DNA of 53,178 nt, from NCBI GenBank assembly GCA_964515035.1, contig CAZEUO010000001.1, positions 24,464 through 77,641 of the forward strand, written 5' to 3'. The notes beneath the pieces are model-generated. The model had not been told where the DNA came from. It searched no databases and worked only from the letters and a program-made list of their open reading frames with translations. The translations under genes were made by a program, and so were the position numbers. Positions 23,533 through 46,755 of this stretch are shown piece by piece (position 1 is the stretch's first letter; every line of letters begins with the position of its first letter). This DNA is from an uncultured Planctomycetales bacterium. GTDB taxonomy: Bacteria; Omnitrophota; Gorgyraeia; Zapsychrales; CAZBRU01.

Positions 23533-23546
23533 AAGGAGGAGTAGAG

Positions 23547-23888
23547 GTGAAACAGAAATTGATTAGGGTCGTGTCGATTATTTTTATTGGGATCAATATT
23601 GGCGGATGTGCCAGCGAATCCAAAAAAGATTCAGGTTGGGTTCCCAACAATACTTTTACAGAAGCCGCATGGATCAGAAACGGCGAGACGCTTGTGTTTG
23701 AAGGCGGAGTATGGAATCCCCAGGACAGCGTGGAGAACATACTGGATTCGGAAGTGTACCCGTTAGGCGAGTACCAGGGATCCCAAATTTTTGCCGAATA
23801 TACGGATGTCAAACCGTTTGACCAGTTGTATACGCGTTTCGCAAAAAATAAATACCGGCTTTTTCAAAAGAAAGCAACGAATGATTAG
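23547..23888 (+). CDS. Small lipoprotein encoded between mlaE and mlaF
   Basis: GTG start 7 nt after an AAGGAGGAG RBS. Signal peptide plus lipobox (VSIIFIGINIGGC). 113 aa. Its stop overlaps the mlaF ATG. Confidence 0.55.
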   Translation: MKQKLIRVVSIIFIGINIGGCASESKKDSGWVPNNTFTEAAWIRNGETLVFEGGVWNPQDSVENILDSEVYPLGEYQGSQIFAEYTDVKPFDQLYTRFAKNKYRLFQKKATND

Positions 23889-24597
23889 AGTGTCACAACT
23901 TCATAAGTCTATTAATGGCCAAGAAATTCTGCACGATATTTCGCTGGAAATCAAGGACGGCGAAATATTGGTTGTCCTGGGCGAAAGCGGTGCGGGAAAG
24001 AGTGTTTTTTTAAAGCACTTGGTTGGGCTGTTTAAACCGGACCAGGGAAAAGTTGAAATCGACCTTGTTGATATTACCCGGTTGACTGAAACGGAGCTTC
24101 TCAATGTCCGGAAAAACATCGGTTATTTATTTCAAGAGGGGGCCTTATACGATTTTATGACGATTTATGAAAATGTTGCTTTCCCCTTGGAAGAGCATAC
24201 AGATTTAAAGGATGATGAAATTAATAAGCGGGTCAAAAATACGTTAAACTTAGTCGGCCTCAAAGAGGCTGAGGAGAAATATCCGGTTGAGTTAAGCGGT
24301 GGAATGAGAAAACGTGCCGCCTTAGCGCGCTCAATTATTTTGGGTTCGAAAATTCTTCTTTGCGATGAACCGACCTCGGGCCTTGATCCCCAGCGCAGCC
24401 ATGACATTTCGGATTTGATAAAAAATATTACACGGCGTATCGGCGCAACAACGGTTGTCACCTCTCACGATGTCAAAAATTCGTTTCGCATCGCAGATCG
24501 CCTGGCTTTAATTCATGATGGGCGGCTTGTGGCCGTCGGCACGCCCCGGGAATTTGAAACAACGCAAAATGCTATCATCAGGGAATTTTTTGATTAA
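23881..24597 (+). CDS. mlaF: MlaF-type ABC transporter ATP-binding protein
   Basis: Walker A GESGAGKS, signature LSGGMRKRAALARS and Walker B ILLCDEPTSGLDP. Start at ATG 23881 (MIRVSQLHKS) rather than 23791. Confidence 0.85.
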   Translation: MIRVSQLHKSINGQEILHDISLEIKDGEILVVLGESGAGKSVFLKHLVGLFKPDQGKVEIDLVDITRLTETELLNVRKNIGYLFQEGALYDFMTIYENVAFPLEEHTDLKDDEINKRVKNTLNLVGLKEAEEKYPVELSGGMRKRAALARSIILGSKILLCDEPTSGLDPQRSHDISDLIKNITRRIGATTVVTSHDVKNSFRIADRLALIHDGRLVAVGTPREFETTQNAIIREFFD

Positions 24598-24628
24598 ACT
24601 TTAAGCGAATAACAAGAAGGGGAAGCCT

Positions 24629-25222
24629 ATGGAAAAACGGGATTTTGTCAAGAGGCTTTATGCCGGGATATTTTTTGTGATCGGGATCTTATTAATTTCA
24701 GTTGTCATCATGGCGATCGGAATCGAAAAAGGAATGACCCAGCCGAAGTTTCAGGCGAAAGTTCTTTTCCGCGAGGTGGGAGGATTAACTCTTGGCGCCC
24801 CGATACGCCTTTCGGGTGTGAATATCGGAAGCGTTGCGGCAATTGATTTTGTGCCCGAGAAAATTGAAGGCCGCGGGGTTCAAGTGACGATGAACTTATT
24901 TCGCCGTTACCGCAAGCAACTGGAAAAGGCCACCGAGGTCGCCATTAAAACGGAGGGGATTTTGGGCGGAAAGATTGTTGCCATTAGCGCCGAACCGAAT
25001 GTCCCATTAATGGATTTAAGCCGGCCGGTTATCGGGGCGGATCCTTTGGATGTCCAGGATTTGGCTGAATCTTTCGGCGATACGGCTGTTTCACTGACCG
25101 AAACCTCGAAAGGAATCAACTCGATTATCGAAGAAATGCAGCGTATTTCCAGGACCTCCAAACGCCTTTTGGATCGAATCGAACAGCGTATTATCGAAGG
25201 CAATTTGTTTAAAGTTTTTTAA
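24629..25222 (+). CDS. mlaD: MlaD/MCE-domain protein
   Basis: N-terminal TM helix followed by an MCE domain (GGLTLGAPIRLSGVNIGSVAAIDF). Confidence 0.8.
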   Translation: MEKRDFVKRLYAGIFFVIGILLISVVIMAIGIEKGMTQPKFQAKVLFREVGGLTLGAPIRLSGVNIGSVAAIDFVPEKIEGRGVQVTMNLFRRYRKQLEKATEVAIKTEGILGGKIVAISAEPNVPLMDLSRPVIGADPLDVQDLAESFGDTAVSLTETSKGINSIIEEMQRISRTSKRLLDRIEQRIIEGNLFKVF

Positions 25223-25891: not shown

Positions 25892-25898
25892 GATTGTA

Positions 25899-26154
25899 GC
25901 GGCCTCGACTCCAACCTAAAGGATTATTTGGTTCGCCCGCCCTGGCCGCTATATATTGGCGGGCCGGGGACGCGTCTCGCCTTTGGCGGGACGTGCTCAC
26001 CACTACATCGAGGCGTCGAACTCGTTCGACGGGCTCACGACTCCTTCGGCGAACGATCCTAAGCTTGCCGAAGGGCACCTTAGGCGAACGACGAGCGTTA
26101 GCGAGGAGGGAGCCGAGGGGTTACCACAAAGAGGCCGCGGACGTAAGTCCGCGG
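25899..26154. other. GC-rich, multi-hairpin intergenic element (candidate cis-regulatory leader or ncRNA)
   Basis: Closing helix gcggcctc (25899-25906) / gaggccgc (26131-26138). Internal hairpins at 25935-25964, 25972-25993, 26014-26031 and 26043-26074. 3' hairpin ccgcggac-gtaa-gtccgcgg (26135-26154). ORFs run on both strands with no coding signal. Confidence 0.4.
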
Positions 26155-26162
26155 ATATTTAG

Positions 26163-28214
26163 TTGAAGCAAGACCAAATCATAGAACTATCGCCGGAATT
26201 AATTTCCGACCTACGCCGCTTTTTTGCCCGATATTCCGATATCATTGCTTTTGCATTGATCGCCATTGTCGGTACGGCGGCGTACATAAAAAGCTTTTAT
26301 GCCGATTTTCAATTTGACGACTACGCTTCAATCGTTGACAATTCGCTCATGAAACGTTTGGATTTTTCCGTTTTGTGGGGAAATTATCGGGAGCGGTTTT
26401 TGACAAATTTGACGTTTGTATTAAAGTATTTATCGAGCGGACTGAACGTCTTTGGCTGGCATTTTGTCAATAATCTGATCCATATCGTTGCGTCCTTCGT
26501 TGTCTATCTTTTAACGCGGACGACCCTGCAAACCCCTCGGCTTAATAATCAATGGGATACCCAAGCGCAATTTGTCGTTGCGTTATCAACGGCGCTGATG
26601 TTTCTCGTCCATCCTCTCCAAACCCAGGCTGTCACCTATATCGTACAGAGGGCAACGTCGTTATCCGGTCTTTTTTATTTAGCGACGGTTTATTTTTATG
26701 CTCAAGGAAGGCTGCATAACCGGCGCCGTGAATATTTTCTGGCGGCAATGATGTGTATGCTTGGAATATTCACAAAACCGACGGTCATTACGTTGCCGCT
26801 GACAATTATTTTGTACGATGTGGTATTTTTCAAAGTTGACCCAAAGGCCAAATTTGAAAAATTATTATCATGGATATTTTTTACCTTTGCTGTTGCGCTG
26901 ATTCCGTTAGCATTGGTGGGCAAGAATTTATTGACTCAAGAGGCGTTTGAAGGTTTTCAGCAAACGTCCATGGGCCACTATGCGTTAACCCAGTTGAATG
27001 TGGTGGCCTCTTACCTGAGATTATTCATTTTTCCATTCGGCCAAAACCTTGATTATGATTTTCCCATTGCCGAAAACATTCTTCAATTTCCGACAAGCCT
27101 TTCGCTGGTCCTGTTATTGGGGCTGGTTTATCTCGCCTTGCGGTTTATGAAAAATCAACGCTATATCACTTTCGGAATATTCTGGTTCTTCATAACTCTT
27201 GGGCCGCAATCGAGTATTTTTGCCCTCCGGGATGTGATTGTGGAACATCGGGTTTATCTGGCGTATTACGGGCTTTGCCTGATTGCGTGCATCATTCTTT
27301 ACCGCACCATCAAATCATTTCGCATCTATCTGGGCCTGATGGTGTTGTTGATAGGAACGCTGGCTGTGATGACCTATCAAAGAAACGCCCTTTGGAGCGA
27401 TGCGACCCGTTTTATGGAAGACGTCGTCGTCAAATCCCCTCAAAAGGCCAGGCCGCACAACAATCTCGGCTTTTTTTATTTCCGGGAAGGGAGACTCATG
27501 GAAGCCGAATCCGAATACAAAAAGGCCATTCAATCGGATCCGGGGTACACGATTGCCTACCACAATCTGGCAACGGTTTATTTTGAATCAGGGCAAATTC
27601 AAAAGGCTCGACGGATTTTTGAGCAGCTGGTTGAGCAATTTCCGGGGTATGCGGACCCGCATGTCGGGCTAGCCAATATCCTCCTCGATTTAGGCGACAT
27701 TGCAAAGGCCAAGGAATTTTATCAAAAGGCCGTTAAAGCCAATCCTTTTAGTTCTGCAGCCTATGTGGGATTGGGGAATTGTTCTCAAAAAGAGGGTGAT
27801 TTGGTCAGTGCCGTATCAAGTTTTCAAAAGGCTATTTGGCTCAATCCTGACAGCGCTTCGGCTTACTATAATCTTGGCAATGTTTATTATCGTCAGAGCC
27901 AGCTTTATCCCGCGTTAACAAGTTATCAAAAGGCGGTTAAATTACGCCCAGAATTTGCGAATGCTTACAACAACCTGGGTAATATTTATTTCCACTTTTA
28001 CGACTATGACAAGGCTTTGGAGCAGTTTCGTCTGGCTATCCGTCTGGATCCCAACCTTGCGGAAGGGTATTTGAATTTGGCTAATACCTTGCATGAGGTC
28101 GGTTACATCGCGACCGCCCGCGCTTATGCCCAGGTTGCACTTCAACTCTATCAAAATCAGGGGCAAGCGGTTATTGCGCAAAAGATTGAAAAACAACTTT
28201 TTTCCAAAAAATAG
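26163..28214 (+). CDS. TMTC-like GT-C-fold membrane glycosyltransferase with C-terminal TPR array (paralog 1)
   Basis: TTG start. Polytopic N-terminal ~420 aa with FQFDDYASIVDN, HPLQTQAVTYIVQR, FTKPTVITLP, FPFGQNLDYDFP and VEHRVYL. About 7 TPRs at the C-terminus (AYHNLATVY, AYYNLGNVY, AYNNLGNIY). Confidence 0.8.
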   Translation: MKQDQIIELSPELISDLRRFFARYSDIIAFALIAIVGTAAYIKSFYADFQFDDYASIVDNSLMKRLDFSVLWGNYRERFLTNLTFVLKYLSSGLNVFGWHFVNNLIHIVASFVVYLLTRTTLQTPRLNNQWDTQAQFVVALSTALMFLVHPLQTQAVTYIVQRATSLSGLFYLATVYFYAQGRLHNRRREYFLAAMMCMLGIFTKPTVITLPLTIILYDVVFFKVDPKAKFEKLLSWIFFTFAVALIPLALVGKNLLTQEAFEGFQQTSMGHYALTQLNVVASYLRLFIFPFGQNLDYDFPIAENILQFPTSLSLVLLLGLVYLALRFMKNQRYITFGIFWFFITLGPQSSIFALRDVIVEHRVYLAYYGLCLIACIILYRTIKSFRIYLGLMVLLIGTLAVMTYQRNALWSDATRFMEDVVVKSPQKARPHNNLGFFYFREGRLMEAESEYKKAIQSDPGYTIAYHNLATVYFESGQIQKARRIFEQLVEQFPGYADPHVGLANILLDLGDIAKAKEFYQKAVKANPFSSAAYVGLGNCSQKEGDLVSAVSSFQKAIWLNPDSASAYYNLGNVYYRQSQLYPALTSYQKAVKLRPEFANAYNNLGNIYFHFYDYDKALEQFRLAIRLDPNLAEGYLNLANTLHEVGYIATARAYAQVALQLYQNQGQAVIAQKIEKQLFSKK

Positions 28215-28216
28215 TT

Positions 28217-30241
28217 ATGCAGAATCAAAAGAAGATTTTCTTTCTTTTTGGGCTTCCCTTCGTAGGGGGGCTCCTTGTCTGGGTTATCTACGGCCAGGGT
28301 GCCCAAGCCCCATTTATTTTTGACGATTATTTGACGATCGTCGAGAATCCCGCCATTAAAAGCCTCAACAACCTCCCGTGGATTTGGAAAATTGACCCCT
28401 CGCGATTTCTGACGTACTTCAGCTTTGCGGTCAATTTTGCTGTCGGCGGATTGCAAACGTCAGGCTATCACGTCGTGAATTTTATTTTGCACGCCTTAAA
28501 CGGGGGAATGTTATTTGTTTTTTTGCGGTTGATATTACCGGGATTATTGAAACATGGCGCATCGATTCGGGATATTAACTTAACGGCCGCCCTAATCACA
28601 TTATTATTTTTATGCCACCCGGTCCAAACCCAAGCGGTTATTTACACGTCCGAGCGATCGACGTTATTTGAAGTATTCTTTTATTTGGGCACGCTCATTT
28701 GTTACATCCAATCTGTCCTTAAAAATCATAAAGGGTTTTATGGGGCAGCGATCTGTTTAGCCTTAATCGGGTCGTTGACCAAGCCGAATTTTATCACCTT
28801 GCCTTTTGCACTCATTCTCTGTGAGATATTTCTTTTTGATTTAACCTGGAGCCGCTTTAAAAAAAGAATTCCGCGTCTTTTGCCGTTTTTTCTTGTCCTG
28901 TTACTTATCCCGGCACTTCTCGTTCTCTGGAAATACAAGGCGTTTTCGATTGATCAGATATGGGGTATTACACGCGAAACGACGAAATTGACTCGCATGG
29001 AATATCTTTTGACGCAGTTCAATGTTGTCATAACCTATTTTCGACTTCTGGTCTTTCCGGTCAACCAGAATCTGGATTATGATTTTCCGATTGCCAAGAA
29101 TTTCTTCAGTTATCCGACGGGTTTGTCTTTTACGGCCTTGATTTTTATATTTATTTTTGCGGTAAAAATATTTAAACGCAATAAGGCCGTTTCATTCGGC
29201 ATCCTGTGGTTTTTTATTACCATCAGTATCGAGTCGAGCGTTTTTCCCATTTCCGATGTTATTTTCGAACACCGGCTATACCTGCCGATGGTAGGGATGA
29301 TGCTGGCGGCCTGTATATTTTTAAGACGCCTCATTCGTTTTGAAAATTACTTTATCATCGTTATGGCGGGTGTCATTGCCGTTTTAACTGTTATGAGTTT
29401 TCAGCGTGTTGTGGTTTGGAAAAGCAGGATCGGGATGCTGTCGGATATCGCTAAAAAATCCCCTCAAAAACCCCGTGCACACAACAACCTTGCCAGTGCT
29501 TTCCACGATGCAAACCGCCTGCAGGAGGCTGAGGAAGAATACCGCAAGGCGATTGCTTTAGATCCCAAATATGCTCACCCGCGTAATAATTTAAGTAACA
29601 TTTATTGGCTGCGCGGTGAAACCCAAAAGGCGATTGAGGAGTTAAAGGAGGCTATCCGCTTAGATCCGGATTATGAAGCCCCTCATTACAATTTGGGGAA
29701 TATTTATATTCAACAAGGCGATTTAAAAAATGCAGAAGAGAATTACCGCAAGGCCCTGGCCTTGAAACCGTCTTTGGCCCTTGGCTATCTGGGGCTGGGG
29801 AATCTTTCATTAAAAAAAGCGGATACGGCGTCGGCAAGGTTTTACTTTTCCGAAGCCCTCAGGCTGGATCCGAATTTAGGATATGCGCATTACGGCTTGG
29901 GCGATATTTATTTGAACGAAGAAATGTTTGACCTGGCTTTTGAAGAATACCGAAAGGCAGCCGAAAAAAATCCGACAATCATATCCGCTTATAATAATAT
30001 GGGCAATATCCTGGATATGTTTGGGAAGCGTAAAGAGGCCGTCATGATTTACCAAAAAGCGATCAACGTTGATCCATCCTACGCCAACGCTTACCTGAAT
30101 CTGGCCAATACCTTAAGAAAGATGGGCCGCTTTGAAGAGTCGGCCAAGTATTTAAAAACTGCAAAAAATCTTTATCGCAGGCAGAAAAACAAGCCCATGA
30201 ATGATGTGGCCCAACAGCGGCTCCAAAGTTTGTTACGGTAA
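28217..30241 (+). CDS. TMTC-like GT-C-fold membrane glycosyltransferase with C-terminal TPR array (paralog 2)
   Basis: Starts 2 nt after paralog 1. Motifs FIFDDYLTIVEN, HPVQTQAVIYTSER, LTKPNFITLP, FPVNQNLDYDFP and FEHRLYLP. About 7 TPRs. Confidence 0.8.
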   Translation: MQNQKKIFFLFGLPFVGGLLVWVIYGQGAQAPFIFDDYLTIVENPAIKSLNNLPWIWKIDPSRFLTYFSFAVNFAVGGLQTSGYHVVNFILHALNGGMLFVFLRLILPGLLKHGASIRDINLTAALITLLFLCHPVQTQAVIYTSERSTLFEVFFYLGTLICYIQSVLKNHKGFYGAAICLALIGSLTKPNFITLPFALILCEIFLFDLTWSRFKKRIPRLLPFFLVLLLIPALLVLWKYKAFSIDQIWGITRETTKLTRMEYLLTQFNVVITYFRLLVFPVNQNLDYDFPIAKNFFSYPTGLSFTALIFIFIFAVKIFKRNKAVSFGILWFFITISIESSVFPISDVIFEHRLYLPMVGMMLAACIFLRRLIRFENYFIIVMAGVIAVLTVMSFQRVVVWKSRIGMLSDIAKKSPQKPRAHNNLASAFHDANRLQEAEEEYRKAIALDPKYAHPRNNLSNIYWLRGETQKAIEELKEAIRLDPDYEAPHYNLGNIYIQQGDLKNAEENYRKALALKPSLALGYLGLGNLSLKKADTASARFYFSEALRLDPNLGYAHYGLGDIYLNEEMFDLAFEEYRKAAEKNPTIISAYNNMGNILDMFGKRKEAVMIYQKAINVDPSYANAYLNLANTLRKMGRFEESAKYLKTAKNLYRRQKNKPMNDVAQQRLQSLLR

Positions 30242-32952: not shown

Positions 32953-33969
32953 ATGGTCACAATTGGCGTTATCGGTTGCGGGCACTGGGGGCCGAATCAC
33001 ATCAGGATTTTCTCAAACCAGCCTCAAGCCAAGGTTGTCGCGTGCGCGGATGCCAGTGAAGACAGGTTAAAGGCCGTTAAAAACCTTTATCCCTCGGTTG
33101 CGGCCACCAAAGATTATAAAGAATTGTTAAAAAACCCCGATGTAGAGGCAGTTTGTATTGCCACACCCACCAATACGCATTTTGCGATTGCCAAAGAAGC
33201 TCTTGAAAATAATAAGCATGTTCTCTGTGAAAAACCTCTGGCGTTAAAGACAGAGGAATGCCAAGAGCTCAAAGATTTGGCGGCAAAAAAGAAGAAAGTC
33301 CTGATTGTTGGCCACATCTTTGTTTTTAATGCCGGCATTATCCGTTTAAAGGAGTATATTCAAAAAGGCGAGCTGGGGACCGTTCATTATGCCCATTCGG
33401 AAAGAACGAACCTCGGACCTTTTCGTTATGACGTCAATGCCCTTTGGGATTTAGCGCCCCATGATATTTCGATATTCAATTTTCTCTTCGACAGTTGTCC
33501 GGTCGGTGTTTCGGCACGCGGCCAGAAATGTCTGGGAACATCACAAGAGGATTTGGGGTTTGTCACTCTGGATTATCCCGGCAACATCCTGATTAATATT
33601 CATGTCAGCTGGTTGGATCCCAAAAAAGTCCGGCAGATTACGGTTGTCGGCGATAAAAAGATGATGATCTGGGATGATCTGGATAACGTCGGGCCGCTGA
33701 AGCTTTACGACAAACATGTGGAGCGGACCGCAACATTTTACGAAACCTACGGCGAGTTTCAGCTGTTGTCGAAAGAGGGAAGTATTACAATTCCAAAGAT
33801 CGATGTTTCCGAGCCGCTCAAGGCTCAAAACCAATATTTTATTGAATGCATCATCAAAAAAACGTCGCCTGTCTTAGTCGACGCCCAAAAGGGTTTGGAT
33901 GTCGTTAAAACACTGTGCGCCATCCAGGAATCGGTTGACAATCAGGGCCGCTATATCGCAATCCGTTAA
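32953..33969 (+). CDS. Gfo/Idh/MocA-family NAD-dependent sugar-nucleotide oxidoreductase (WbpB-like)
   Basis: GGGGAG RBS. IGVIGCGHWGPNH Rossmann motif and the EKPLA motif (VLCEKPLALK). Adjacent to an LbH N-acetyltransferase. Confidence 0.8.
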   Translation: MVTIGVIGCGHWGPNHIRIFSNQPQAKVVACADASEDRLKAVKNLYPSVAATKDYKELLKNPDVEAVCIATPTNTHFAIAKEALENNKHVLCEKPLALKTEECQELKDLAAKKKKVLIVGHIFVFNAGIIRLKEYIQKGELGTVHYAHSERTNLGPFRYDVNALWDLAPHDISIFNFLFDSCPVGVSARGQKCLGTSQEDLGFVTLDYPGNILINIHVSWLDPKKVRQITVVGDKKMMIWDDLDNVGPLKLYDKHVERTATFYETYGEFQLLSKEGSITIPKIDVSEPLKAQNQYFIECIIKKTSPVLVDAQKGLDVVKTLCAIQESVDNQGRYIAIR

Positions 33970-33979
33970 AGAACCTCTC

Positions 33980-34537
33980 ATGAAATATTTCCAGCACGAA
34001 AAAGCCATTGTGAGCCCTAGAGCCCAGGTTGGGGAAGAAACCCGTATCTGGGCTTTTGTCAATATTCAAGAAGGCGCCATCGTTGGGAAACGCTGCAATA
34101 TTTGCGATGGTTGTTTCATTGAAAAAGGCGCCGTCATCGGCGATGAGGTCACGGTTAAAAATGGCGTTGCTGTTTTCGAAGGTGTTGTGCTTGAAGACAA
34201 TGTGTTTTGCGGGACGGGAGTATCTTTTATCAACGATCGTTATCCGCGCAGCCAACCCAAACGGATTTGGACTCTTGAAAAAACGGTTGTCAAAAAAGGT
34301 GCGACCATCGGTAGCGGTTCAACGATCATGTGCGGTGTTGTGATCGGGGAATTCGCGATGATTGGTGCGGGAAGTGTAGTTCTCAATGACGTTCCGGCGC
34401 ACGTATTAGTTTTTGGAAATCCGGCCGAAAAAAAAGGTTATACTTGTCGTTGCGGCAAAAAACTTGGGGTTAACCTCTGCTGTTCTTGCGGCCTTCGATA
34501 TAGCGAAGCCGGGCAGGGTTTAAGAGTTCATGAGTAA
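33980..34537 (+). CDS. Hexapeptide-repeat sugar N-acetyltransferase (WbpD/WlbB-like) with C-terminal Cys-rich tail
   Basis: Start at ATG 33980 (MKYFQHEKAIVSPRAQVGEETRIWAFVNIQEGAIVG). VKNGVAVFEGVVLEDNVFCG...NDRYPRS...GATIGSGSTIMCGVVIGEFAMIGAGSVV. Tail YTCRCGKKLGVNLCCSCG. Confidence 0.8.
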   Translation: MKYFQHEKAIVSPRAQVGEETRIWAFVNIQEGAIVGKRCNICDGCFIEKGAVIGDEVTVKNGVAVFEGVVLEDNVFCGTGVSFINDRYPRSQPKRIWTLEKTVVKKGATIGSGSTIMCGVVIGEFAMIGAGSVVLNDVPAHVLVFGNPAEKKGYTCRCGKKLGVNLCCSCGLRYSEAGQGLRVHE

Positions 34538-35261
34538 AATTCTGGTTTCTCCGGTTGCTTTTAACGAAAACGTAAAACTGAAAAGCGTCATTGAAAGATT
34601 CTTAAAAAGCCGGGCTTTCGGTCGTGTGGATTATTTGATTGTCGATGACGGATCTACCGACGGAACAACGGGCGTCATTGAAAGCTTCAAATCTTCGAAT
34701 GTCATGACGATCAAGCACCCCGTACGCCGGGGTGTGGGGGCGGCGATTCGAACCGCCATAAAATTTGCGATTCAAAATCATTACGATATCATTGTGATTA
34801 TGGCCGGAAACGATAAGGATAATCCCGAGGAAATTCCGATAGTTACGGGCCCCATTGAAAAAGATAATTTTGATCTGGTTCAGGGTTCGCGCTATTTGGG
34901 CCAGGCTCGTACCGGCGGGGATATGCCGGCTTACCGCAAATTGGCTGTCCGTCTTCATTCTTTTCTGTTATCAGTCATAACCGGGAAAAAAATGACGGAT
35001 ACGACTAATGGTTTCCGGGCCATGCGCCTTTCCCTTTTTAAGGACCCGAGAATTCATATTGACCAGCCGTGGCTTGATCAATATGAATTGGAGCCGTATA
35101 TTCTTCTTAAGTCCATAAAACTTGGCTACCGGGTCACAGAGGCCCCGGTTACCAAAATCTATCCTCCCAAAAAACTTGGCTATACCAAAATGCGCCCCTT
35201 GATTGGATGGTGGAGTATTTTAAAGCCTTTATTTTATTTGGGGCTGGGGATAAAAGAATAA
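34530..35261 (+). CDS. GT2 glycosyltransferase, polyprenyl-phosphate sugar synthase-like (Ppm1/DPM1/GtrB type)
   Basis: 8-nt overlap with the upstream gene. LIVDDGSTDGT, MAGNDKDNPEEIP (in place of DADxxH), QGSRY and TNGFRAM. 243 aa with no C-terminal TM helices. Confidence 0.8.
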   Translation: MSKILVSPVAFNENVKLKSVIERFLKSRAFGRVDYLIVDDGSTDGTTGVIESFKSSNVMTIKHPVRRGVGAAIRTAIKFAIQNHYDIIVIMAGNDKDNPEEIPIVTGPIEKDNFDLVQGSRYLGQARTGGDMPAYRKLAVRLHSFLLSVITGKKMTDTTNGFRAMRLSLFKDPRIHIDQPWLDQYELEPYILLKSIKLGYRVTEAPVTKIYPPKKLGYTKMRPLIGWWSILKPLFYLGLGIKE

Positions 35262-38363: not shown

Positions 38364-38657
38364 ATGGAGAGAATTGGAATCGTCGCGAGTAAGATTGCCA
38401 AAGGAAACCTTCTCCTCTACAATTTTTTTGTTATTTTTATTACGCTCGTGTTTTCACTTCTCGTTTTCCTGGTTTCCGGTTCTGCCATTGTTGTTGCCCT
38501 CATAGGCATTGCCTACCTGACCGCCCAAGGATCACCGCCCGACCTTCAAAAGGGGTGGATTCCCATCATGATCGTTTGCCTGAAGTCTCTTGCCATCATC
38601 ATCGGTCTGGTTGTTTTTTGTGCCCTGGCCATCAACGTCAAATTTAGGAAGAAATGA
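38364..38657 (+). CDS. Small three-TM membrane protein, hypothetical
   Basis: 97 aa, hydrophobic. ATGA overlap with the downstream histidine kinase gene. Confidence 0.45.
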
Positions 38658-41005
38658 AGAAAAAATCAAAGACACTGGATGCCGTCTCTGCTTTTGGCGA
38701 TGAGAGTATTTGGTTTCGCCAGCTGATTGATAATCTTAAGGTCGGCGTTTATCGTTCCTCACCGGGGCCTCAAGGGCGTTTCTTGATTGTTAATTCGGCG
38801 ATCGGGGATATCTTAGGTTACCGGGTGGATGAAATTATGAAAATTAAAGTGGCGGAGATTTATGAAAGCCCCAGTCAACGGCGCTTTTTCATCGAAAAGA
38901 TTATTCGCCACGGCTATGTCAAAGACGAACAAGTGCGTTTGAGAAAAAGAAGCGGCCAGTTGATATGGTGTTCCATAACGGCAACATCCGTGAAAGACGA
39001 TAAAGGCAAGCCGTTGTGGATTGACGGGATTTTAGAAGACGTCTCCACCCAAAAACGGGTCGAACGCGAACTTTTAGAATCCAAGGAGTTGTTCCGGCTG
39101 GTCTTTGAAAATTCGGCAGCGGCGATAACGGTTACGGACCGTAATGAAAAGATTATCGCCTGGAATCCCTTTGCCGAAAAGATGCTTGAGATGGGAAAAG
39201 ACGAGCTGTTCAACAAGCCGGTAAAGGAAATTTATCCGCCGAAAGAATGGAAGAGGATGCGCTCGTTTCGCATCCGTGAAAAAGATGTCGCATCTGAAGT
39301 CGAAACGCAGGTCATTAAAAAAGGCGGGTCATTGGTCGATGTCAGTGTTTCCATTTCCATTTTGAAAGATATTGAAGGCAATATTACCGGCGCCATTGGA
39401 ATTATGCGTGATATTACCAACCAAAAGATTGCCGAGCGCCGCTTAAAGGATTCAGAGTACAAAACGCGCGTCATTCTGGACAATTCCGCGGCGGCAATCA
39501 CTTTAACCGATGAAAATGAAAATATTATTTCCTGGAATAAATTTACCGAACAATTGCTGGGAATGAAAAAGCCGGATTTGTATTTAAAACATATCAGCGT
39601 GCTGTACCCTAAAGAAGAATGGAAAAAGATCCGGGACGAAAATATCCGTAAAATTGGTTCACGGCATCACATGGAAACAAAGATCATCCACAAGGACGGA
39701 AGAATTATTGATATTGATTTGTCAGTCAATGTTCTGATGGATTCTTCGGGGAAGATTATCGGTTCTGTCGGTATCATGCAGGATAATACCGAGCGTAAGC
39801 AAGCTCAAGAGATGCTGCTGCAGGCTAAGATTGCCGCCGAAGAAGCCAGTAACGCCAAAACCATGTTTTTGGCCAACATGTCTCATGAGGTACGCACGCC
39901 CATGAATGCCATTATCGGGATGATCGATTTGACGCTGGATACGTCGTTATCAGATGAACAAAAAGACAATTTGAATACAGCCAAGGACGCTGCCGGAAAC
40001 CTGCTGAACCTTTTAAACGATATTTTGGATTTGTCGCGTGTGGAGGCCGGAAAGATTCACCTCGAGGCGATCGAGTTTGATGTCCGCAATGTCTTGCATA
40101 GTGTTTGTAAAGGCTTAACCGTATTGGCTCGCAACAAAAATCTGGAATTGGCCTGGAATGTGGATTCCAAAGTCCCTCAATTTGTCGTTGGGGATCCGAC
40201 ACGGTTACGCCAGATCATTATTAATCTCGTGAATAACGCCATTAAATTTACCCATAAAGGAAAAATTGAAGCCAATGTGAGTGTTGCGGCGGCCGTCGAA
40301 GAGGAAGTGACGTTAACGTTTTCCGTTGTTGACACCGGTATTGGGATCCCCAAAGATAAGCAGGGCCTTCTCTTCGAGCCCTTTACTCAGGCCGATGATT
40401 CGACGACCCGCAAGTATGGCGGAACCGGTTTAGGCCTTGCCATTTCGAAGCGCTTAGTTGAAATTATGGGGGGGAAGATTTGGGTCGAGAGCGAACCGTT
40501 TAAGGGAAGCACATTTTATTTTACCCCGGTTTTTAAAGTTGCGCATAAGGATCCGTCTGCCGCGGTTGTTTCAATTTCACAGGATTCCGGTGACAAAGTG
40601 GTCGGGTCAGCCAATTTGAAAGGATTACGCATCCTTTTAGCCGAAGATAATTTCATGAACCAAAAGATTGCAACGAGGATGCTGGAGAAAAAGGGGTGGG
40701 TGGTTTCTGTGGCCCAAAACGGCCGGGAGGCTGTTGATCGCGTGAATAACGAAGTTTATGACATTGTTTTAATGGATGTCCAAATGCCCATCGTTGACGG
40801 CCTGGAGGCGACACGTCTGATTCGTGAGGAAGAAAAGAATACCGGCCGCCATATCCCGATTGTTGCCATGACGGCCCACGCCATGGAAGGCGATGAACGG
40901 AAGTGCTTAGCCAGCGGGATGGACGGGTATGTTTCCAAGCCAATTGACATCACGAAAGTTTACGAAACTATCGAGAACGCATTGACAAAAAGGACAACCG
41001 TATGA
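38654..41005 (+). CDS. Hybrid sensor histidine kinase (3x PAS - HisKA - HATPase_c - REC), cytoplasmic
   Basis: Three PAS/PAC units, each ending in G(I)xxD(V/I)(S/T)xxK. H-box [17 protein letters not shown] box [11 protein letters not shown] boxes DTGIGI and GGTGLGL. REC ILLAEDN...[13 protein letters not shown]...MTAH...SKP. No TM helix. Confidence 0.9.
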
Positions 41006-41358
41006 GCCAAGATGCCGTGGATTTAAAAGAGGTGTTGGAAAGAGTGCAAAATGACCGCGCACTTTTAGTGGAGCTATTTGATATTTTTCTTTCCGATTGC
41101 CCCGGAAAGATCACTGCGTTAAAGACGGCAGTTGCTAAAAAGGATTTAACAGCCCTGAAAGATGTTGCGCATTCCCTTAAGGGGGCATCCGGCAACATCT
41201 CCGCAAAAAAACTTTTTGATTCGTTTTTGAAAATCGAACAAATAGCGAAGAGCAATGATTTGTCGGCTCTGGATGGGCCGTTGTCCATTCTTGATAGCCA
41301 AATTGAGGAATTGAAGGTGTTTGCGGCGAAATACAAAGACGAAAATAAGACATCTTGA
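41002..41358 (+). CDS. Hpt-domain phosphotransfer protein
   Basis: 4-nt overlap with the kinase gene. 118 aa. [12 protein letters not shown] carries the phosphorylatable His. Confidence 0.85.
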
Positions 41359-41392
41359 TTTTCTTGTTTCAACTGCTAGTAAGGAAGAAAAT

Positions 41393-43162
41393 TTGAAATT
41401 GTGGCAGGCCATAGGCTTATTGGCCGTCTTGGGACTTTTCAGTTACGGCAACGCGATTTATCATCCCTTTGTCCACGACGATGTTGTTTTTATCCAGAGT
41501 AATCCCAACCTTGACCGCTTTGATGACGTTCCTTCCTTGTTTCTCCACTCTTCAAAAAGCGCGGATGATATCATCATTATTAACGCTTATTACCGGCCGC
41601 TTTTGGAGATTTTGTACAAAACTCAACACTTCTTTTTTGGATTAAATCCCCACGCGTTTCATATTTTTAACATCCTTCTTCACATCACCAATAGTATCCT
41701 CGTTTATGCGGTTGCTGGTTTTTTGCTTAAAAATCACAACGTTGCGTTAGGCATTGCGGCAATTTTTTTGGTGCATCCGGTGCAATCGGAGGCGGTCGCC
41801 TGCATTGTGGGGGTCTCAAATCTTTTGTATGGCTTTTTTATTTTAGCGGGATTTTATTGTTACGGACTTTCCGGGCGTACCTTTAAGGGGACAAAGGCCT
41901 ATGTCCTTTACGGGTTATCGTTAGGTTTATTTGTCTTGGGGGTTTTGACGAAGGAACAGGGGCTGATTTTCTTTTTTCTAATTGTCCTTTATGAATTTTG
42001 TTTTTGCAAAAGCGGGATGCGTTTGGCAAAGCCAAATATTTTTCGCTTAAGTGGTATCGGAATTTTATTTTTAGGGTACTTATTTTTACGCAAGGCTGTT
42101 TTGCATATCGCATTGCCGCCTCTTTGGGATAATCCGCAAGAATTGTTTTTGAGGCTTTTGTCCATACCAAAAACTTTGCTTTTATATTTGAAAATCCTAG
42201 TTTTTCCGACGGATTTACACTATTACCGGTGTTTGGATATTTTACAACCCTGGTTTTGGCCGTTTGTCATTCTCGGGGGACTAATTGCCGGAGGAATTTA
42301 TGGCTTAAAAGCCCTCTTTCCAGAGGAAAGGCGCCTGGTCGCCTTTGGCCTGGGATGGTTTTTATTGGCGCTCTTTCCTGTATTGAACATTGCGCCGCTG
42401 ATTGTGGAATATTCTTACATTATGACGTCGGATCATTTTTTATATTTGCCCATTCTCGGGTTTTTGATCGCCGGCTATGCCTTTTTCCGGCGTTGGCCGC
42501 AAATCGTGTTTCAAGGCAGGGCCGTAAAGAGTTCACGGATTGTTCTGGCGTGCCTGGTTTTCATTTTTTCACTGATGACTATAAGACAAAATTCTTTTTG
42601 GCGGGGGGAAACCGCTCTTTTTGAGCGGACAATTCAATTTGAATCCAAGGTCGGACGGATCCAGATTCTTTTAGCAAAGGCATATTTGCAGGAGGGCCGT
42701 TTTGATCAGGCGATAACGCATTTTCAAATAGCCTTAGGCATCCTTCAGGGTTATGCTGAAAAGACGCAGGATGTCCGGGCTAAGAATTTTTATCAAGGAT
42801 TCATTAAGGAAATTTATATTGATTTGGGCCTTGCCCTGGAAGCCAAAGGGGATTCTTCTGGCGCGTTGACGTCCTATGAAGAAGCAATCGCCCTTGATTC
42901 CGGTGATAGTGTGGTGTATAACAACGTAGGAACTGTTTATATGAAAGCGGGACAGTTGGATGCTGCCATTGAGGCTTTTCAAAAATCTCTCGACAGCAAT
43001 CCGGATAATGTTTTTGCCATGAATAATCTGGCCGTTGCTTACATTTACCAGAAGCAATATAAAAAAGCCGAAGAAAAACTGCGACAAGCTATCGCTATTG
43101 ATCCCGGGTTCATTGACGCAAAGAAAAACCTCGAACGGTTGCAAAGAAACGAGAAATTTTAA
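41393..43162 (+). CDS. TMTC-like GT-C-fold membrane glycosyltransferase with C-terminal TPR array (paralog 3, divergent)
   Basis: The ORF is open from ATG 41321 (38-nt overlap with hpt). TTG 41393 with an AAGGAAG RBS is preferred. Motifs FVHDDVVFIQSN, HPVQSEAVACIVG, LTKEQG and SDHFLYLP. About 4-5 TPRs (VYNNVGTVY, AMNNLAVAY). Confidence 0.72.
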   Translation: MKLWQAIGLLAVLGLFSYGNAIYHPFVHDDVVFIQSNPNLDRFDDVPSLFLHSSKSADDIIIINAYYRPLLEILYKTQHFFFGLNPHAFHIFNILLHITNSILVYAVAGFLLKNHNVALGIAAIFLVHPVQSEAVACIVGVSNLLYGFFILAGFYCYGLSGRTFKGTKAYVLYGLSLGLFVLGVLTKEQGLIFFFLIVLYEFCFCKSGMRLAKPNIFRLSGIGILFLGYLFLRKAVLHIALPPLWDNPQELFLRLLSIPKTLLLYLKILVFPTDLHYYRCLDILQPWFWPFVILGGLIAGGIYGLKALFPEERRLVAFGLGWFLLALFPVLNIAPLIVEYSYIMTSDHFLYLPILGFLIAGYAFFRRWPQIVFQGRAVKSSRIVLACLVFIFSLMTIRQNSFWRGETALFERTIQFESKVGRIQILLAKAYLQEGRFDQAITHFQIALGILQGYAEKTQDVRAKNFYQGFIKEIYIDLGLALEAKGDSSGALTSYEEAIALDSGDSVVYNNVGTVYMKAGQLDAAIEAFQKSLDSNPDNVFAMNNLAVAYIYQKQYKKAEEKLRQAIAIDPGFIDAKKNLERLQRNEKF

Positions 43163-43163
43163 T

Positions 43164-43943
43164 ATGCCCGCAATATTAATCCTTGAAGACCAAGAGGCTG
43201 TCTCCGAAATCATCAAAATTAATCTTGAAGACCAGGGTTTTAAGGTTTTTGTCGGAAAAAACGGCAACATGGGCCTGGAGATCCTTAAGAAGGTTACGCC
43301 GGAAGTGATTATTCTGGATATTCTCATGCCGGAAATGGACGGCTACCAGTTTTATAAAAAAATCAAAGCCAATGAGCAAACCAGCCGCATTCCGGTTTTG
43401 GTTATGACGGTGCGGGGGGCGATGAAGGACGCTTTTCTGGTTTTGGGTGTTGACTCGTTTCTGGCCAAACCATTTTTGCCTGATGAGCTGATCAGTCAGG
43501 TGAAGGCCCTGATCCCAACGCCGGCGGAAAAAAATCAGTCTAAAAAGATCGCTCTGGTCGCCGGGTCTGATAACGATCGTGTGGACACCATGCGTCAGCA
43601 GTTGAAGAAGAAGGGTTATGCCGTTGAGACGGTATCGGACGGGCCGGCGGCCTTAGAAAAAGCTCTGAAGTTGTTGCCACAGTTATTTGTTCTACAGTTT
43701 GACATGCCGGGAATGGACGCGGACACGATTGTCCAGAAGCTTCGCCGGGAACCAAAGGCCAAAAATATTTCCGTTGTTGTTTACTCACCTTTAAAAGCGC
43801 AAGATGACACAAACCGCTTCGGCTGGGAACGGTTTTTGAACGCCGATTCCGAAAAGGACCTGCGGGAAACGGAAACACCCATCAAAATCATCGAAAAGTT
43901 TGATAAAGACTCTTTTTTGGATAAAATTAAAGACTTTCTTTAG
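43164..43943 (+). CDS. Response regulator with two receiver domains and no output domain
   Basis: ATG 43164 lies 1 nt after the upstream stop. REC1 ILILEDQE...IILDILMPEMDG...VMTVRG...LAKPF. REC2 IALVAGSDND...FVLQFDMPGMDA...VVVYSP; its conserved Lys is unclear. Confidence 0.85.
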   Translation: MPAILILEDQEAVSEIIKINLEDQGFKVFVGKNGNMGLEILKKVTPEVIILDILMPEMDGYQFYKKIKANEQTSRIPVLVMTVRGAMKDAFLVLGVDSFLAKPFLPDELISQVKALIPTPAEKNQSKKIALVAGSDNDRVDTMRQQLKKKGYAVETVSDGPAALEKALKLLPQLFVLQFDMPGMDADTIVQKLRREPKAKNISVVVYSPLKAQDDTNRFGWERFLNADSEKDLRETETPIKIIEKFDKDSFLDKIKDFL

Positions 43944-43968
43944 TCTTGATCGTATTTTAAACCCTCTC

Positions 43969-45981
43969 ATGTTCCGCCACCTGTATAACCCCGAAAGATC
44001 TCTGATTGTCATTTTTCTTCTTACGCTCGTAGGGGCATTGGTTTATTTCAATAGTTTCGGTGTCGGATTTCAACTCGATGACATGTCTGTTATCGTGCGC
44101 AACTTTCATTTGCGTCATCCCGAAAAAATAACGGAATTATTTCGCTACGATCCGACGAGGTTTTTAACGCATCAGACGTTTGCCTTCAATGTCATTTTTC
44201 ACGGTTTTAAGCCTGCGTATTTTCATCTGGTAAATTTACTGATTCACATCGGCTGCGCTATAACGGTCTATTTTCTTACGGCCAAGACACTCGTTCTTGC
44301 AAAAGTTAAAGATATTAAGGATGAAGAAACTATCTGCCTGGTGTCTTTTTTTTGTGCGCTTGTTTTTCTGACGCACCCGGTTCAAACAGAAAGCGTGACT
44401 TATATCGTTCAACGCTCAACGGCCCTGGCGGCATTTTTTTATTTAATTTCCTTAATGATGTATTTGAAACTGAAGGAATATTTTAGGTGGACGTTGTATG
44501 TGGTTGCGCTTGGTGTTATTGCGTTGGGAACCATGACAAAACCCATTTTTATTACCTTGCCTTTAATGATTTTGCTTTATGAATTCTGCTTTTTTGATTT
44601 GTGGGGCCGGATTCAAAAAAAAGAAATCCGGTTTAAGCAGATTGTGTTATCCCTGCCATATTGTTCGGTCGTTGTGGTCATCCCGTTATTTTTGATGTTG
44701 TTTTCGCTTCATTACACCTCGGAGGCGTTTGACTCAACGAAACTTATATACGCAACCCGTGTGACTTCCGAGATCTCCCGCTGGGAGTATCTGTTAACCC
44801 AAAGCCGTGTTCTTTTGACCTACATCGGACTATTATTATTTCCCATCAATCAAAATCTGGATTATGATTTTCCACTGTCGCGTCAATTATTTGAACCGCA
44901 AACGCTTCTGCCTTGCCTGTCTATTGTGGGGATCCTATGGGTCGCGTTACGGTTATGGCGGGACCGGAGGATTTTTGCATTCGGTATCTTTTGGTTTTTT
45001 ATTGCCCTCATTCCTGAGTCGAGTGTTTTTCCGATCCCTGATGTTATTTTTGAACATAGATTGTATCTGGCATTGGCCGGCTTTTCCGTTATAGTCAGCG
45101 TTGGATTATATTTTCTTTTAAAAGAGCCTCGCCGATATTTCATGTACGGAATACTGATCATCACGAGCCTGTCATTTGTTACATATTCCCGAAACGAAAT
45201 TTGGCGTTATCCGCTCATTCTTTGGAAGGATGTGGTAAAAAAATCGCCCCTCAAGGCACGGCCGAATCATATTTTGGCTGACGCTTATTTTGCGCTAAGA
45301 TTGTTAGACTCCGCCGAGGCACAATATAAAAAAACGATTTCTTTAGATGTAAATTATTTGCAATCCTATAATAATTTAGGCCGGCTTTATGTCCTGCAAA
45401 AAAAGGACAGTGCTGCGGAGGCCCTCTTCAAACATGTCCTCGAGCGCGAGCTCGGCAACTTTGAAGCCAACGTCAACTTAGGTAATATTTATTTTCAGCG
45501 TGGCCAGTGGGACTTGGCCGTGGCGCAATTTAAAATGGCCGCCACAATCATGCCCAATGCGGAAACGCCGTATCTGAATTTAGGAAACATTTATGCGCGG
45601 ATGAAAAGTATCCCGCAGGCCTTGGAATTTTATGAAAAGGCCATAAAGCATAATCCTTACAATGCTTTTGTCCATTACGCGCTCGGAAACCTTTATATGG
45701 AAGAAAAAGATTTTCCATCGGCGATATCAAATTATAAAAAAGCGATACTGTTAAATCCCCTTTACCCGGATGTCTACAATACGCTTGGCATTGCCTATGC
45801 GGCTTCGGAGAATTTATCCGATGCCGAAATTTGTTTTCAAAAAGCCATAAAACTGAAACCTGATTTTACCATGGCGTATCTGAATGCAGCCAACATCAGC
45901 CGGGCGAAAGGGGATATCGAACAGGCACAGCGGTATTCCCATATTGCTACTGAACTCAGACGCCGTCAGGGTGCCAAATAA
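43969..45981 (+). CDS. TMTC-like GT-C-fold membrane glycosyltransferase with C-terminal TPR array (paralog 4)
   Basis: The ORF is open from 43900 (overlapping the RR gene). ATG 43969 is preferred. Motifs FQLDDMSVIVRN, HPVQTESVTYIVQR, MTKPIFITLP, FPINQNLDYDFP and FEHRLYL. About 7 TPRs. Confidence 0.8.
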   Translation: MFRHLYNPERSLIVIFLLTLVGALVYFNSFGVGFQLDDMSVIVRNFHLRHPEKITELFRYDPTRFLTHQTFAFNVIFHGFKPAYFHLVNLLIHIGCAITVYFLTAKTLVLAKVKDIKDEETICLVSFFCALVFLTHPVQTESVTYIVQRSTALAAFFYLISLMMYLKLKEYFRWTLYVVALGVIALGTMTKPIFITLPLMILLYEFCFFDLWGRIQKKEIRFKQIVLSLPYCSVVVVIPLFLMLFSLHYTSEAFDSTKLIYATRVTSEISRWEYLLTQSRVLLTYIGLLLFPINQNLDYDFPLSRQLFEPQTLLPCLSIVGILWVALRLWRDRRIFAFGIFWFFIALIPESSVFPIPDVIFEHRLYLALAGFSVIVSVGLYFLLKEPRRYFMYGILIITSLSFVTYSRNEIWRYPLILWKDVVKKSPLKARPNHILADAYFALRLLDSAEAQYKKTISLDVNYLQSYNNLGRLYVLQKKDSAAEALFKHVLERELGNFEANVNLGNIYFQRGQWDLAVAQFKMAATIMPNAETPYLNLGNIYARMKSIPQALEFYEKAIKHNPYNAFVHYALGNLYMEEKDFPSAISNYKKAILLNPLYPDVYNTLGIAYAASENLSDAEICFQKAIKLKPDFTMAYLNAANISRAKGDIEQAQRYSHIATELRRRQGAK

Positions 45982-46083: not shown

Positions 46084-46755
46084 ATGAATATGATGATTGT
46101 GGTAATTATTGGAATCTTGGGATTCTTTCTAGCCGTGCTTTTATTAATGCCGGCGGAAACGAAACGCAAAGGGAACCCTCCAAGTGATGCTCAAAACCCT
46201 TCCGATTTGCGCCTGAAAGAATGGGAAACGGTGACTCAGAGGCTTGAGAAACACATCCATTCTCTGCGTGCCGAGATTGAAGCGTTTAAGGCCCGGGAAC
46301 GAAAGATGCTAAAAGATCTGGCCGTTGAGCGGGATAAAAGTGCCAAGCTTCAGGAAAAAGTTTCGAAAGAGAAGGAATGGCTGGAAAAAGAGGAAGAATC
46401 TTTGAGTAAAAAGGACAATGAACTGCGTGATCTTAAGGGTACGCTGGTTAAAATCGAGAACGATCTCGAACGCGAATTCTCAGCCAAACTCAAAGCCGAG
46501 CAGCAGCTGAAAGAATTAACTGCTGATCATGATTCATTAAACAAGGAAAGCCGGGAGCAGTCGGTTAAAATCATGCGGCTGGAAAGCGAAGTCGACGCTT
46601 ATAAAAAAGAATTAAGCAAACTTAAGAAGGCCAACGAAGAGTTGAGCAAAAAAAACGACGCAACCCAGTGGATCGCCAAGGCTGAATTTGATAAGCTCAC
46701 CCTGAAGATCCAGGAAAAAGAAAAGGAAATTGAGCGGTTGAGCCGCGACAGTTAA
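46084..46755 (+). CDS. Membrane-anchored coiled-coil protein
   Basis: N-terminal TM helix (MIVVIIGILGFFLAVLLLM) followed by ~190 aa of heptad-rich, Glu/Lys/Leu-rich sequence. Confidence 0.6.
   Translation: MNMMIVVIIGILGFFLAVLLLMPAETKRKGNPPSDAQNPSDLRLKEWETVTQRLEKHIHSLRAEIEAFKARERKMLKDLAVERDKSAKLQEKVSKEKEWLEKEEESLSKKDNELRDLKGTLVKIENDLEREFSAKLKAEQQLKELTADHDSLNKESREQSVKIMRLESEVDAYKKELSKLKKANEELSKKNDATQWIAKAEFDKLTLKIQEKEKEIERLSRDS

Follow-up and report, generated by a model that had tools for sequence, protein, structure and literature searches.

A stretch of DNA of 53,178 nt from a member of Candidatus Omnitrophota, referred to here as the window, raises the question of what the genes of a multistep phosphorelay have to do with the glycosyltransferase genes between which they lie. 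The cells of this phylum, most of whose members are uncultured, are very small and in part dependent on hosts. A first-pass annotation, made without database searches, had described a gene-by-gene alternation of a hybrid histidine kinase (HK), a histidine phosphotransfer protein (Hpt), a glycosyltransferase of the GT-C type with tetratricopeptide repeats (TPR), a response regulator (RR) with two receiver domains (REC-REC) and a second GT-C/TPR protein, and had suggested that the relay acts on the transferases. The arrangement is more than chance, as it recurs phylum-wide. It is best explained by a conserved, operon-like unit across Candidatus Omnitrophota consisting of a small membrane protein (p97), a soluble PAS hybrid kinase, Hpt, the first GT-C/TPR protein (GTC1) and a coiled-coil protein (CC). 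With a probability of roughly 0.5, we read this unit as a conserved operon of envelope glycosylation and phosphorelay genes, which has been elaborated in the lineage of the window.

Organization of the locus

The genes of the unit are all located on the + strand and are given in window positions, with the evidence for each assignment in brackets:

38364..38657, + strand: p97, small membrane protein of 97 aa with 2-3 transmembrane (TM) helices (sequence, hydropathy)
38654-41005, + strand: HK, soluble hybrid histidine kinase, 783 aa (Pfam domains)
41002-41358, + strand: Hpt, stand-alone phosphotransfer protein, 118 aa (PF01627)
41393..43162, + strand: GTC1, predicted GT-C-fold glycosyltransferase with TPR, alternative start TTG 41321 (AlphaFold2 (AF2), Foldseek, Pfam TPR)
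43164-43943, + strand: RR, REC-REC response regulator, 259 aa (Pfam, alignment)
43969-45981, + strand: GTC2, second GT-C/TPR paralogue, 670 aa (phmmer, shared motifs)
46084..46755, + strand: CC, coiled-coil protein anchored in the membrane, TM helix at its N-terminus (sequence, hydropathy, weak coiled-coil Pfam matches)

The p97 gene, which lies outside the coordinates of the first-pass annotation and has no match in Pfam or NCBIfam, overlaps the HK start with its stop codon by 4 nt. HK and Hpt share a 4-nt ATGA overlap. The Hpt stop codon at 41356-41358 is followed by the motif AAGGAAG and then by TTG 41393, the likely start of GTC1 after a gap of 34 nt; the public gene call places this start at TTG 41321, resulting in a 38-nt overlap with Hpt. 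RR follows GTC1 after 1 nt, and GTC2 starts at ATG 43969, 25 nt behind RR. From HK to GTC2, the genes thus share one strand and have short or overlapping junctions as in a single operon (-4, +34 or -38, +1 and +25 nt), just as had been described. No terminator-like site was found in the intergenic junctions, and the total of such motifs is close to chance (25 versus 17 +/- 4.2 expected). Promoter-like motifs are slightly enriched (31 versus 20.3 +/- 4.6).

Conservation of the unit across Omnitrophota

Membrane-domain homologues of GTC1 were obtained by the hundreds at 40-50% identity, and those carrying a name are annotated as "tetratricopeptide repeat protein [Candidatus Omnitrophota]". For the analysis of gene order, 80 loci were used, one genome per GTDB species and all of them metagenome-assembled genomes of Omnitrophota. 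The genes of each locus were found by searching six-frame open reading frames (ORFs) with the window proteins, and the 75 loci with at least 500 nt of upstream sequence were regarded as informative. Many of the records (L006, L010, L011, L013, L015 and others) are titled "uncultured Planctomycetales bacterium" and contain an Omnitrophota-type locus, an apparent inconsistency of labels.

Hpt is encoded upstream of GTC1 in 75 of the 75 informative loci and is directly adjacent in about 60. Inserts of at least 900 nt separate the two genes in 13-15 loci, with the unit otherwise kept. Of 57 informative loci, 51 carry HK; p97 lies upstream of HK, or of Hpt in loci lacking the kinase, in an equal fraction (51/57), and CC is found downstream of GTC1 in 66 of 75. 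An adjacent REC-REC gene occurs in 1/75 loci and a GTC2-type paralogue in 5/75. In L018, L021, L026, L037, L056, L058, L063, L064, L069 and L081, HK is missing and p97 is directly followed by Hpt and GTC1. Hpt is the only neighbour never lost from GTC1: each of the upstream M48 protease gene, HK, p97 and CC is absent from one lineage or another, and this invariance of Hpt argues for a specific link between Hpt and GTC1. Both breakpoints of synteny that were inspected (L027 and L049) fall immediately after GTC1. Neither the window nor any of the loci retrieved contains a second GTC1-type copy, and the genomic position of GTC1 is always the same.

The inserts between Hpt and GTC1 are located at 8221-9926 in L006, 946-2826 in L022, 8215-9942 in L023, 29-1729 in L164 and 1129-2630 in L165, with about ten more in other loci. 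Where gene calls were available (L164 and L165), they encode three proteins, one anchored in the membrane and 280-340 aa long, one of about 70 aa and one of the DUF1318 (YdbL) type; in some lineages the large membrane-anchored protein was seen alone. This trio recalls ydbH-ynbE-ydbL of E. coli, genes of outer-membrane lipid homeostasis.

RR and GTC2 as accessory genes

RR is rare: among 5.8 billion proteins, about ten full-length orthologues with 48-89% identity were found, followed by a sharp drop to 32%. Its contexts beyond the species set were recovered by exact-protein look-ups of these orthologues, and in all 7 contexts RR directly follows GTC1. A scan of metagenome contigs with RR returned generic receiver domains of at most 41% identity and was uninformative for synteny.

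The full order HK-Hpt-GTC1-RR-GTC2 is found in the window, L001, L005 and L164 only. RR without GTC2, with CC directly next, occurs in L165 and L166/L167, and GTC2 without RR in L002/L003, L029 and L030, which refutes an obligate pair of the two genes. Most lineages carry neither, and in L004 and L014 a GTC2-like gene precedes GTC1. Between GTC1 and CC lies a variable slot, closed by CC, that receives the RR and GTC2 inserts, and strict interleaving is only one of the states in which it occurs. Of the gene order proposed in the first-pass annotation, the pairing of Hpt with GTC1 recurs in relatives and RR, where present, lies behind GTC1 (7/7); the complete interleaving was seen in four loci only.

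The encoded phosphorelay

Pfam assigns to HK three PAS domains (~38711-39793), followed by HisKA (39854-40051), HATPase_c (40190-40528) and a receiver domain (40631-40972), and a hydropathy scan detected no TM segment. The residues of the phosphorelay are intact, namely H411 in HisKA and D708 in the receiver together with T740 and K762. BarA, TorS, ArcB, LuxQ and RcsC are the best partial matches of HK in NCBIfam. Hpt matches PF01627 at 3.2e-12, and its His57 (codon 41170-41172) is part of the motif HSLKGASGN. This histidine and the pattern HxxKGxxxN are invariant in 81/81 orthologues, including those from loci without HK; Hpt of the latter would therefore be fed by another kinase or have another role.

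RR consists of two Response_reg stretches with no other Pfam domain and a conserved C-terminal tail. REC1 (43170-43514) is canonical, with D9, D52, T82 and K102 invariant in 10 orthologues. REC2 (43545-43940) is atypical, as the alignment shows D136, D180 and S208 to be kept and the K-P pair to be absent. The best NCBIfam partial matches of RR include the PleD and DVU0259/DivK families. The locus thus combines a hybrid kinase, an Hpt histidine and a terminal receiver with a complete active site, the members of a multistep His-Asp-His-Asp phosphorelay. As judged from these residues, a complete relay is encoded in which phosphate would pass from H411 to D708 of HK, on to H57 of Hpt and finally to D52 of RR. 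The relay postulated in the first-pass annotation thus has all its phospho-acceptor residues intact.

A lone receiver of ~135-165 aa is encoded downstream of the aminotransferase gene that follows CC in 39 other loci, L006, L008-L010, L013, L017, L020 and L024 among them. Its distance from the aminotransferase gene is usually ~0.5-2 kb and reaches up to ~6 kb. The gene is absent from the window, L003 and L164. In the lineages that carry it, the lone receiver is a candidate for the relay's terminal acceptor, and the REC-REC protein may have taken its place in the subclade of the window. Such a takeover would not be a clean replacement, because L002/L003 carry neither of the two.

Fold and family of GTC1 and GTC2

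The membrane domains of GTC1 and GTC2 match no Pfam family even at E <= 10. NCBIfam recognizes their TPR parts and not their membrane domains, and a sequence-profile search of the PDB built on 18 orthologues found nothing. Dense TPR matches in Pfam cover the C-terminal third of both proteins. GTC1 comprises 11 TM helices (~41393-42604) followed by the TPR array (~42653-43159); GTC2 has a membrane domain (~43969-45168) with an LDD motif and a TPR array at ~45271-45978.

In the AF2 model of full-length GTC1 (predicted local distance difference test score (pLDDT) 85.5, predicted template modelling score (pTM) 0.85), 11 TM helices are followed by the TPR helices. A Foldseek search with this model was uninformative on the membrane domain, being swamped by the TPR proteins OGT, SPY and designed CTPRs. 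The search of the PDB was repeated with a model of the membrane domain only (pLDDT 82, pTM 0.87), and ranks 1-22 are GT-C enzymes throughout. The GT-C matches include Pmt4, STT3, Pmt1/Pmt2, AglB, PglB, ArnT (5ezm), DPY19, AftD and EmbA/B, with ALG3 at rank 25. Pmt4 (9i5k) is the best match, with an E-value of 6e-4 and the highest TM-score, 0.54. The Foldseek probability is 0.99-1.00 for most of ranks 1-21, falling to 0.92 and 0.66 at ranks 21 and 22, and unrelated membrane proteins rank below the GT-C matches with probabilities under 0.2. At the level of profiles, PMT_2 matches 6 of the 18 orthologous membrane domains (best 8e-8), GT-C_AftD matches one, and one orthologue has a weak PMT match.

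In the first extracytoplasmic loop, GTC1 carries an HDD motif; across 32 orthologues its D53 never varies and its D54 is conserved in at least 90% (numbering from TTG 41321). The four GT-C/TPR paralogues of the window share F-x-x-DD with both Asp invariant, HP-x-Q, TK, FG-x-x-WF and E...H-x-x-YL; the DD, HP-Q, TK and E...H-YL motifs are invariant in the orthologues as well. A multi-pass GT-C_A fold according to AF2 and Foldseek and an acidic first-loop motif, the marks of the GT-C superfamily, are hence both found. The GT-C fold of the two membrane domains is supported by structure prediction, and the GT-C call of the first-pass annotation is thereby supported, curated sequence models matching a part of the orthologues and none of the window proteins. 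The domain architectures noted there for the five proteins are likewise supported.

GTC2 is homologous to GTC1 (phmmer 3e-19) and nearer to two tandem GT-C/TPR paralogues of the window (1e-83 and 1e-78). These paralogues (26163-28214 and 28217-30241, + strand) have the same catalytic motifs as GTC2 and lie ~1 kb downstream of an MlaE-MlaF-MlaD set (22762-25222) with no signalling genes nearby. Orthologues of GTC2 within the cluster (L001, L002/3, L005, L029, L030 and L164) outscore the window paralogues. With four copies within 20 kb, the GT-C/TPR family has expanded in this genome.

Membrane topology

Eleven TM helices place the N-terminus of GTC1 on one side of the membrane and its TPR array on the other. 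Clusters of Lys and Arg are found in the N-terminal tail and in the loops after TM2, TM4, TM6, TM8 and TM10. On the side opposite to these K/R-rich loops lie the HDD loop, the TPR array and the long loop that follows TM7. GTC1 thus has the TMTC architecture of 11 TM helices, C-terminal TPR and an N-in/C-out pattern, with the membrane side deduced from these features. On the basis of the helix count, the positive-inside rule and the analogy to TfpW and TMTC, the TPR arrays and the catalytic DD loop are predicted to be periplasmic. The cytoplasmic exposure of GTC1 would amount to ~50 residues in five short loops of 2-17 residues, with almost no N-terminal tail if translation starts at 41393. A cytoplasmic regulator therefore cannot contact periplasmic TPR, so that a contact of RR with the TPR arrays, as envisaged in the first-pass annotation, is ruled out by the predicted topology.

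Comparison with known systems

By architecture, the closest characterised enzyme to GTC1 and GTC2 is TfpW, the pilin D-arabinofuranosyl transferase of Pseudomonas aeruginosa Pa5196/PA7. Its DDx loop and TPR were located in the periplasm by PhoA/LacZ fusions (bioRxiv 10.1101/2020.04.19.049825). Whereas the TfpW gene adjoins the acceptor gene pilA, GTC1 and GTC2 adjoin signalling genes, and no pilin gene was seen in the scanned parts of the window. The cyanobacterial pilin glycosyltransferase "Ogt" was discarded as an analogue, as it is a GT41 enzyme with N-terminal TPRs and not a GT-C protein.

The closest eukaryotic analogues are TMTC1-4, O-mannosyltransferases of the endoplasmic reticulum which use dolichyl-phosphate mannose. 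They have 11 TM helices, a non-cytoplasmic C-terminal TPR, a fold of the GT-C/PMT clan and a loop 1 with an acidic motif, and DUF1736, located in the TM7-TM8 loop, matches every human TMTC at E < 1e-30 (PMC7801869). The layout of 11 TM helices plus TPR is common to GTC1, but DUF1736 was found neither in GTC1 and GTC2 (E <= 10) nor in the 18 orthologues (E <= 1), which rules out membership in this family. Of the earlier term "TMTC-like", the architecture remains and the family does not: on the models, GTC1 and GTC2 are GT-C/TPR enzymes of TMTC/TfpW-like architecture and not TMTC members.

Regarding the relay, RcsC-RcsD-RcsB, LuxQ-LuxU-LuxO and ShkA-ShpA-TacA are multistep phosphorelays with a separate Hpt. 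The locus shares with them the hybrid kinase with C-terminal receiver, the separate Hpt and the subsequent receiver protein, and Hpt has partial NCBIfam matches to LuxU and RcsD; the scores of the HK core and of Hpt are far below the equivalog cut-offs. In contrast to these relays, RR has no DNA-binding or enzymatic output, and a glycosyltransferase gene lies between Hpt and RR. Receiver-only proteins which act through protein contacts are FrzZ, DivK, CpdR and the REC-REC adaptor part of PleD. RR resembles regulators of the FrzZ/DivK type in domain layout, and its REC2 is atypical (S208, no K-P).

PmrAB and PhoPQ control ArnT, which modifies lipid A with aminoarabinose, at the transcriptional level; the donor is an undecaprenyl-phosphate sugar made by the GT2 enzyme ArnC. 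In that case a two-component signal governs a periplasmic GT-C enzyme, and ArnT is among the structural matches of GTC1 as ArnC is among the matches of the GT2 protein encoded upstream of the unit. However, that system uses a DNA-binding regulator and no multistep relay, its genes are not interleaved, and ArnT has no TPR. Signal-controlled periplasmic GT-C glycosylation in general thus has a precedent. Of the pairing of Hpt with a GT-C/TPR protein, no description was found in the literature searched.

The wider syntenic block

The unit is part of a longer conserved order. GreA, a UDP-GlcNAc 3-dehydrogenase-like oxidoreductase (GFO-type), a NeuD/PglB-type acetyltransferase, GT2, (p226) and a small lipoprotein are followed by SpoU methylase, HD hydrolase, BepA/LoiP-like M48 protease, p97, HK, Hpt, GTC1, CC and aminotransferase. 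Three of the upstream genes are candidates for the supply of a sugar donor:

32953-33969, + strand: UDP-GlcNAc 3-dehydrogenase-like gene, sugar-nucleotide enzyme
33899-34537, + strand: NeuD/PglB-type hexapeptide acetyltransferase
34530-35261, + strand: GT2, polyprenyl-phosphate glycosyltransferase-like (Pfam Glycos_transf_2, NCBIfam partial matches)

GT2 is found at the same position in most of the loci L004-L083 that have enough upstream DNA, and the set of dehydrogenase, acetyltransferase and GT2 is more strongly conserved than GTC1 itself. GT2 and the sugar-nucleotide enzymes plausibly make the lipid-linked donor for the GT-C enzymes. Three-component extracytoplasmic glycosylation consists of a polyprenyl-phosphate sugar synthase, a flippase and a GT-C enzyme, as in Gtr, Arn and GT136 (PMC11127046). 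The locus likewise has GT2 and GT-C in one block, but GT2 lies six genes upstream of GTC1 and a flippase was not identified.

Interpretation

In our preferred reading, a glycosylation and phosphorelay operon, the GT-C enzymes would take a sugar linked to polyprenyl phosphate, plausibly provided by the conserved GT2 ~3 kb upstream in the manner of a three-component system, and pass it to a periplasmic or envelope acceptor, protein or glycan, chosen by the TPR array. The relay and GTC1 would be co-transcribed within one envelope-related regulon. Glycosylation capacity and signalling would then be coupled through shared expression or through signalling of envelope status, and not through contact between regulator and TPR. 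In the subclade of the window, the REC-REC acceptor would have been inserted directly after GTC1, followed in some members by the duplicated GT-C/TPR protein GTC2. The REC-REC protein would serve as terminal phospho-acceptor here and work by protein contacts or as a phosphate sink.

Several observations weigh against this reading. The flanking genes for SpoU, HD hydrolase, M48 protease and aminotransferase are about as syntenic as HK-Hpt-GTC1, and as the run of ~15 genes includes housekeeping functions, synteny alone is no proof of functional coupling. Nearly every gene of the window is on the + strand: all gene-like ORFs of at least 100 aa in positions 1-53178 have this orientation except two, and the GC skew is positive in all 2-kb bins but one. 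The window is probably part of one replichore arm, on the leading strand, and co-directionality is therefore a weak argument for an operon here. A sigma-70-like site (10/12 matches) at 43900-43927, 42 nt upstream of the GTC2 start, could drive GTC2 separately; promoters of Omnitrophota are uncharacterised. The partial matches of GT2 in NCBIfam (PpgS, dolichyl-phosphate hexose transferase, AglJ and ArnC) all fail to reach the curated cut-offs, and the syntenic block yielded no flippase. In L002/L003, HK and Hpt are present with no receiver gene anywhere nearby, so that the output of the relay is not defined by the locus. Given the equally syntenic flanking genes and the co-directional window, both the operon membership and the functional coupling of relay and GT-C proteins are inferences.

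These observations also feed the strongest alternative, which we regard as unlikely though deserving serious weight: there may be no functional link, a long ancestral gene order having been retained and RR and GTC2 having landed in a permissive intergenic slot. GreA, the GFO-type dehydrogenase, acetyltransferase, GT2, SpoU, HD, M48 and aminotransferase genes are then simply as syntenic as the relay and GTC1 in a co-directional window, RR and GTC2 vary independently of each other, and the two further paralogues at 26163-30241 do without signalling neighbours. It is difficult to reconcile with this view that Hpt-GTC1 is kept in 75/75 loci while M48, HK, p97 and CC are each lost somewhere, that both inspected breakpoints lie after GTC1 and not between Hpt and GTC1, and that RR was inserted inside the unit instead of beside HK and Hpt.

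We consider it improbable that information flows in reverse, with the GT-C/TPR protein, p97 and CC acting as an envelope sensor for the soluble kinase in the sense of a "trigger enzyme" co-sensor. Transporters which serve as co-sensors, BceAB for BceS and DctA for DcuS, offer a comparison; we know of no precedent for a GT-C protein in this role. HK is wholly soluble, yet its flanking genes encode three or four membrane proteins and join tightly or overlap, p97 even overlapping the HK start, and the neighbourhood has an envelope theme (BepA/LoiP-like M48, lipoprotein, YdbH/YdbL-like inserts and Mla genes). However, three PAS domains suffice as cytoplasmic sensors, and p97, Hpt and GTC1 persist where HK was lost. 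Least probable of all is direct post-translational control, in which phosphorylated RR or Hpt docks on cytoplasmic loops of GTC1/GTC2, or on p97 or CC as adaptors, and switches activity or partner choice: RR has no output domain, keeps a conserved C-terminal tail and has its gene immediately behind GTC1 in every case (1 nt apart in the window), and Hpt is never missing beside GTC1, but the TPR would be periplasmic, GTC1 would offer the cytoplasm hardly more than its five small loops, and RR is absent from this position in 74/75 species loci in which GTC1 is retained.

Further features of the window

An 897-aa protein (3482-6175, + strand) has an N-terminal GtrA/DPMS TM domain of the lipid-linked-sugar flippase type; its C-terminal region is large and gives a weak "oligosaccharide amylase" match alone. 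On its flanks are encoded a GH1 glycosidase, an acyltransferase and a GT4-hydrolase fusion. A GC-rich non-coding stretch of ~270 nt (25895-26165, + strand) that lies just upstream of the first tandem GT-C/TPR paralogue folds with a minimum free energy of -126.6 kcal/mol, compared with -101.6 +/- 5.0 kcal/mol for shuffled sequences (z = -5.0). Behind a multi-stem structure come an 8-bp GC hairpin, separate from it, and a tail rich in AU. The stretch has no Rfam match (gathering threshold or E <= 1) and contains no tRNA or tmRNA, and Rfam and tRNA scans of the window gave nothing; the stretch possibly represents a structured RNA or leader not yet described. A 306-aa protein (16468-17388, + strand) carries an N-terminal RRM_1 domain (2.7e-16) and a long C-terminal extension without a Pfam match at E <= 1e-5.

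Significance

Phosphorelays and GT-C/TPR transferases are each known already; to our knowledge, what is new is the phylum-wide, never-broken pairing of Hpt with a periplasmic GT-C/TPR protein, and this invariant pairing is the part that most deserves follow-up. If the pairing is not functional, the locus still documents an unusually deep conservation of a ~15-gene order and gives a clean example of how a conserved operon takes in accessory genes, here a receiver-only regulator and a paralogue of the transferase. There is a small chance that the GT-C/TPR protein is a physical component of the relay, either as a periplasm-facing co-sensor which gates the PAS kinase and Hpt, or as a direct target of Hpt or RR through its short cytoplasmic loops, p97 or CC. 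Glycosylation in the periplasm and His-Asp phosphorylation in the cytoplasm would in that case be linked post-translationally, and the invariant Hpt-GTC1 pairing would mark a new class of enzyme-coupled signalling module. If the pairing is functional in whichever way, bacterial envelope or protein glycosylation would be wired to a His-Asp-His-Asp relay without a locus-encoded transcription factor, and a first functional handle would be gained on the expanded GT-C/TPR family of the Omnitrophota.

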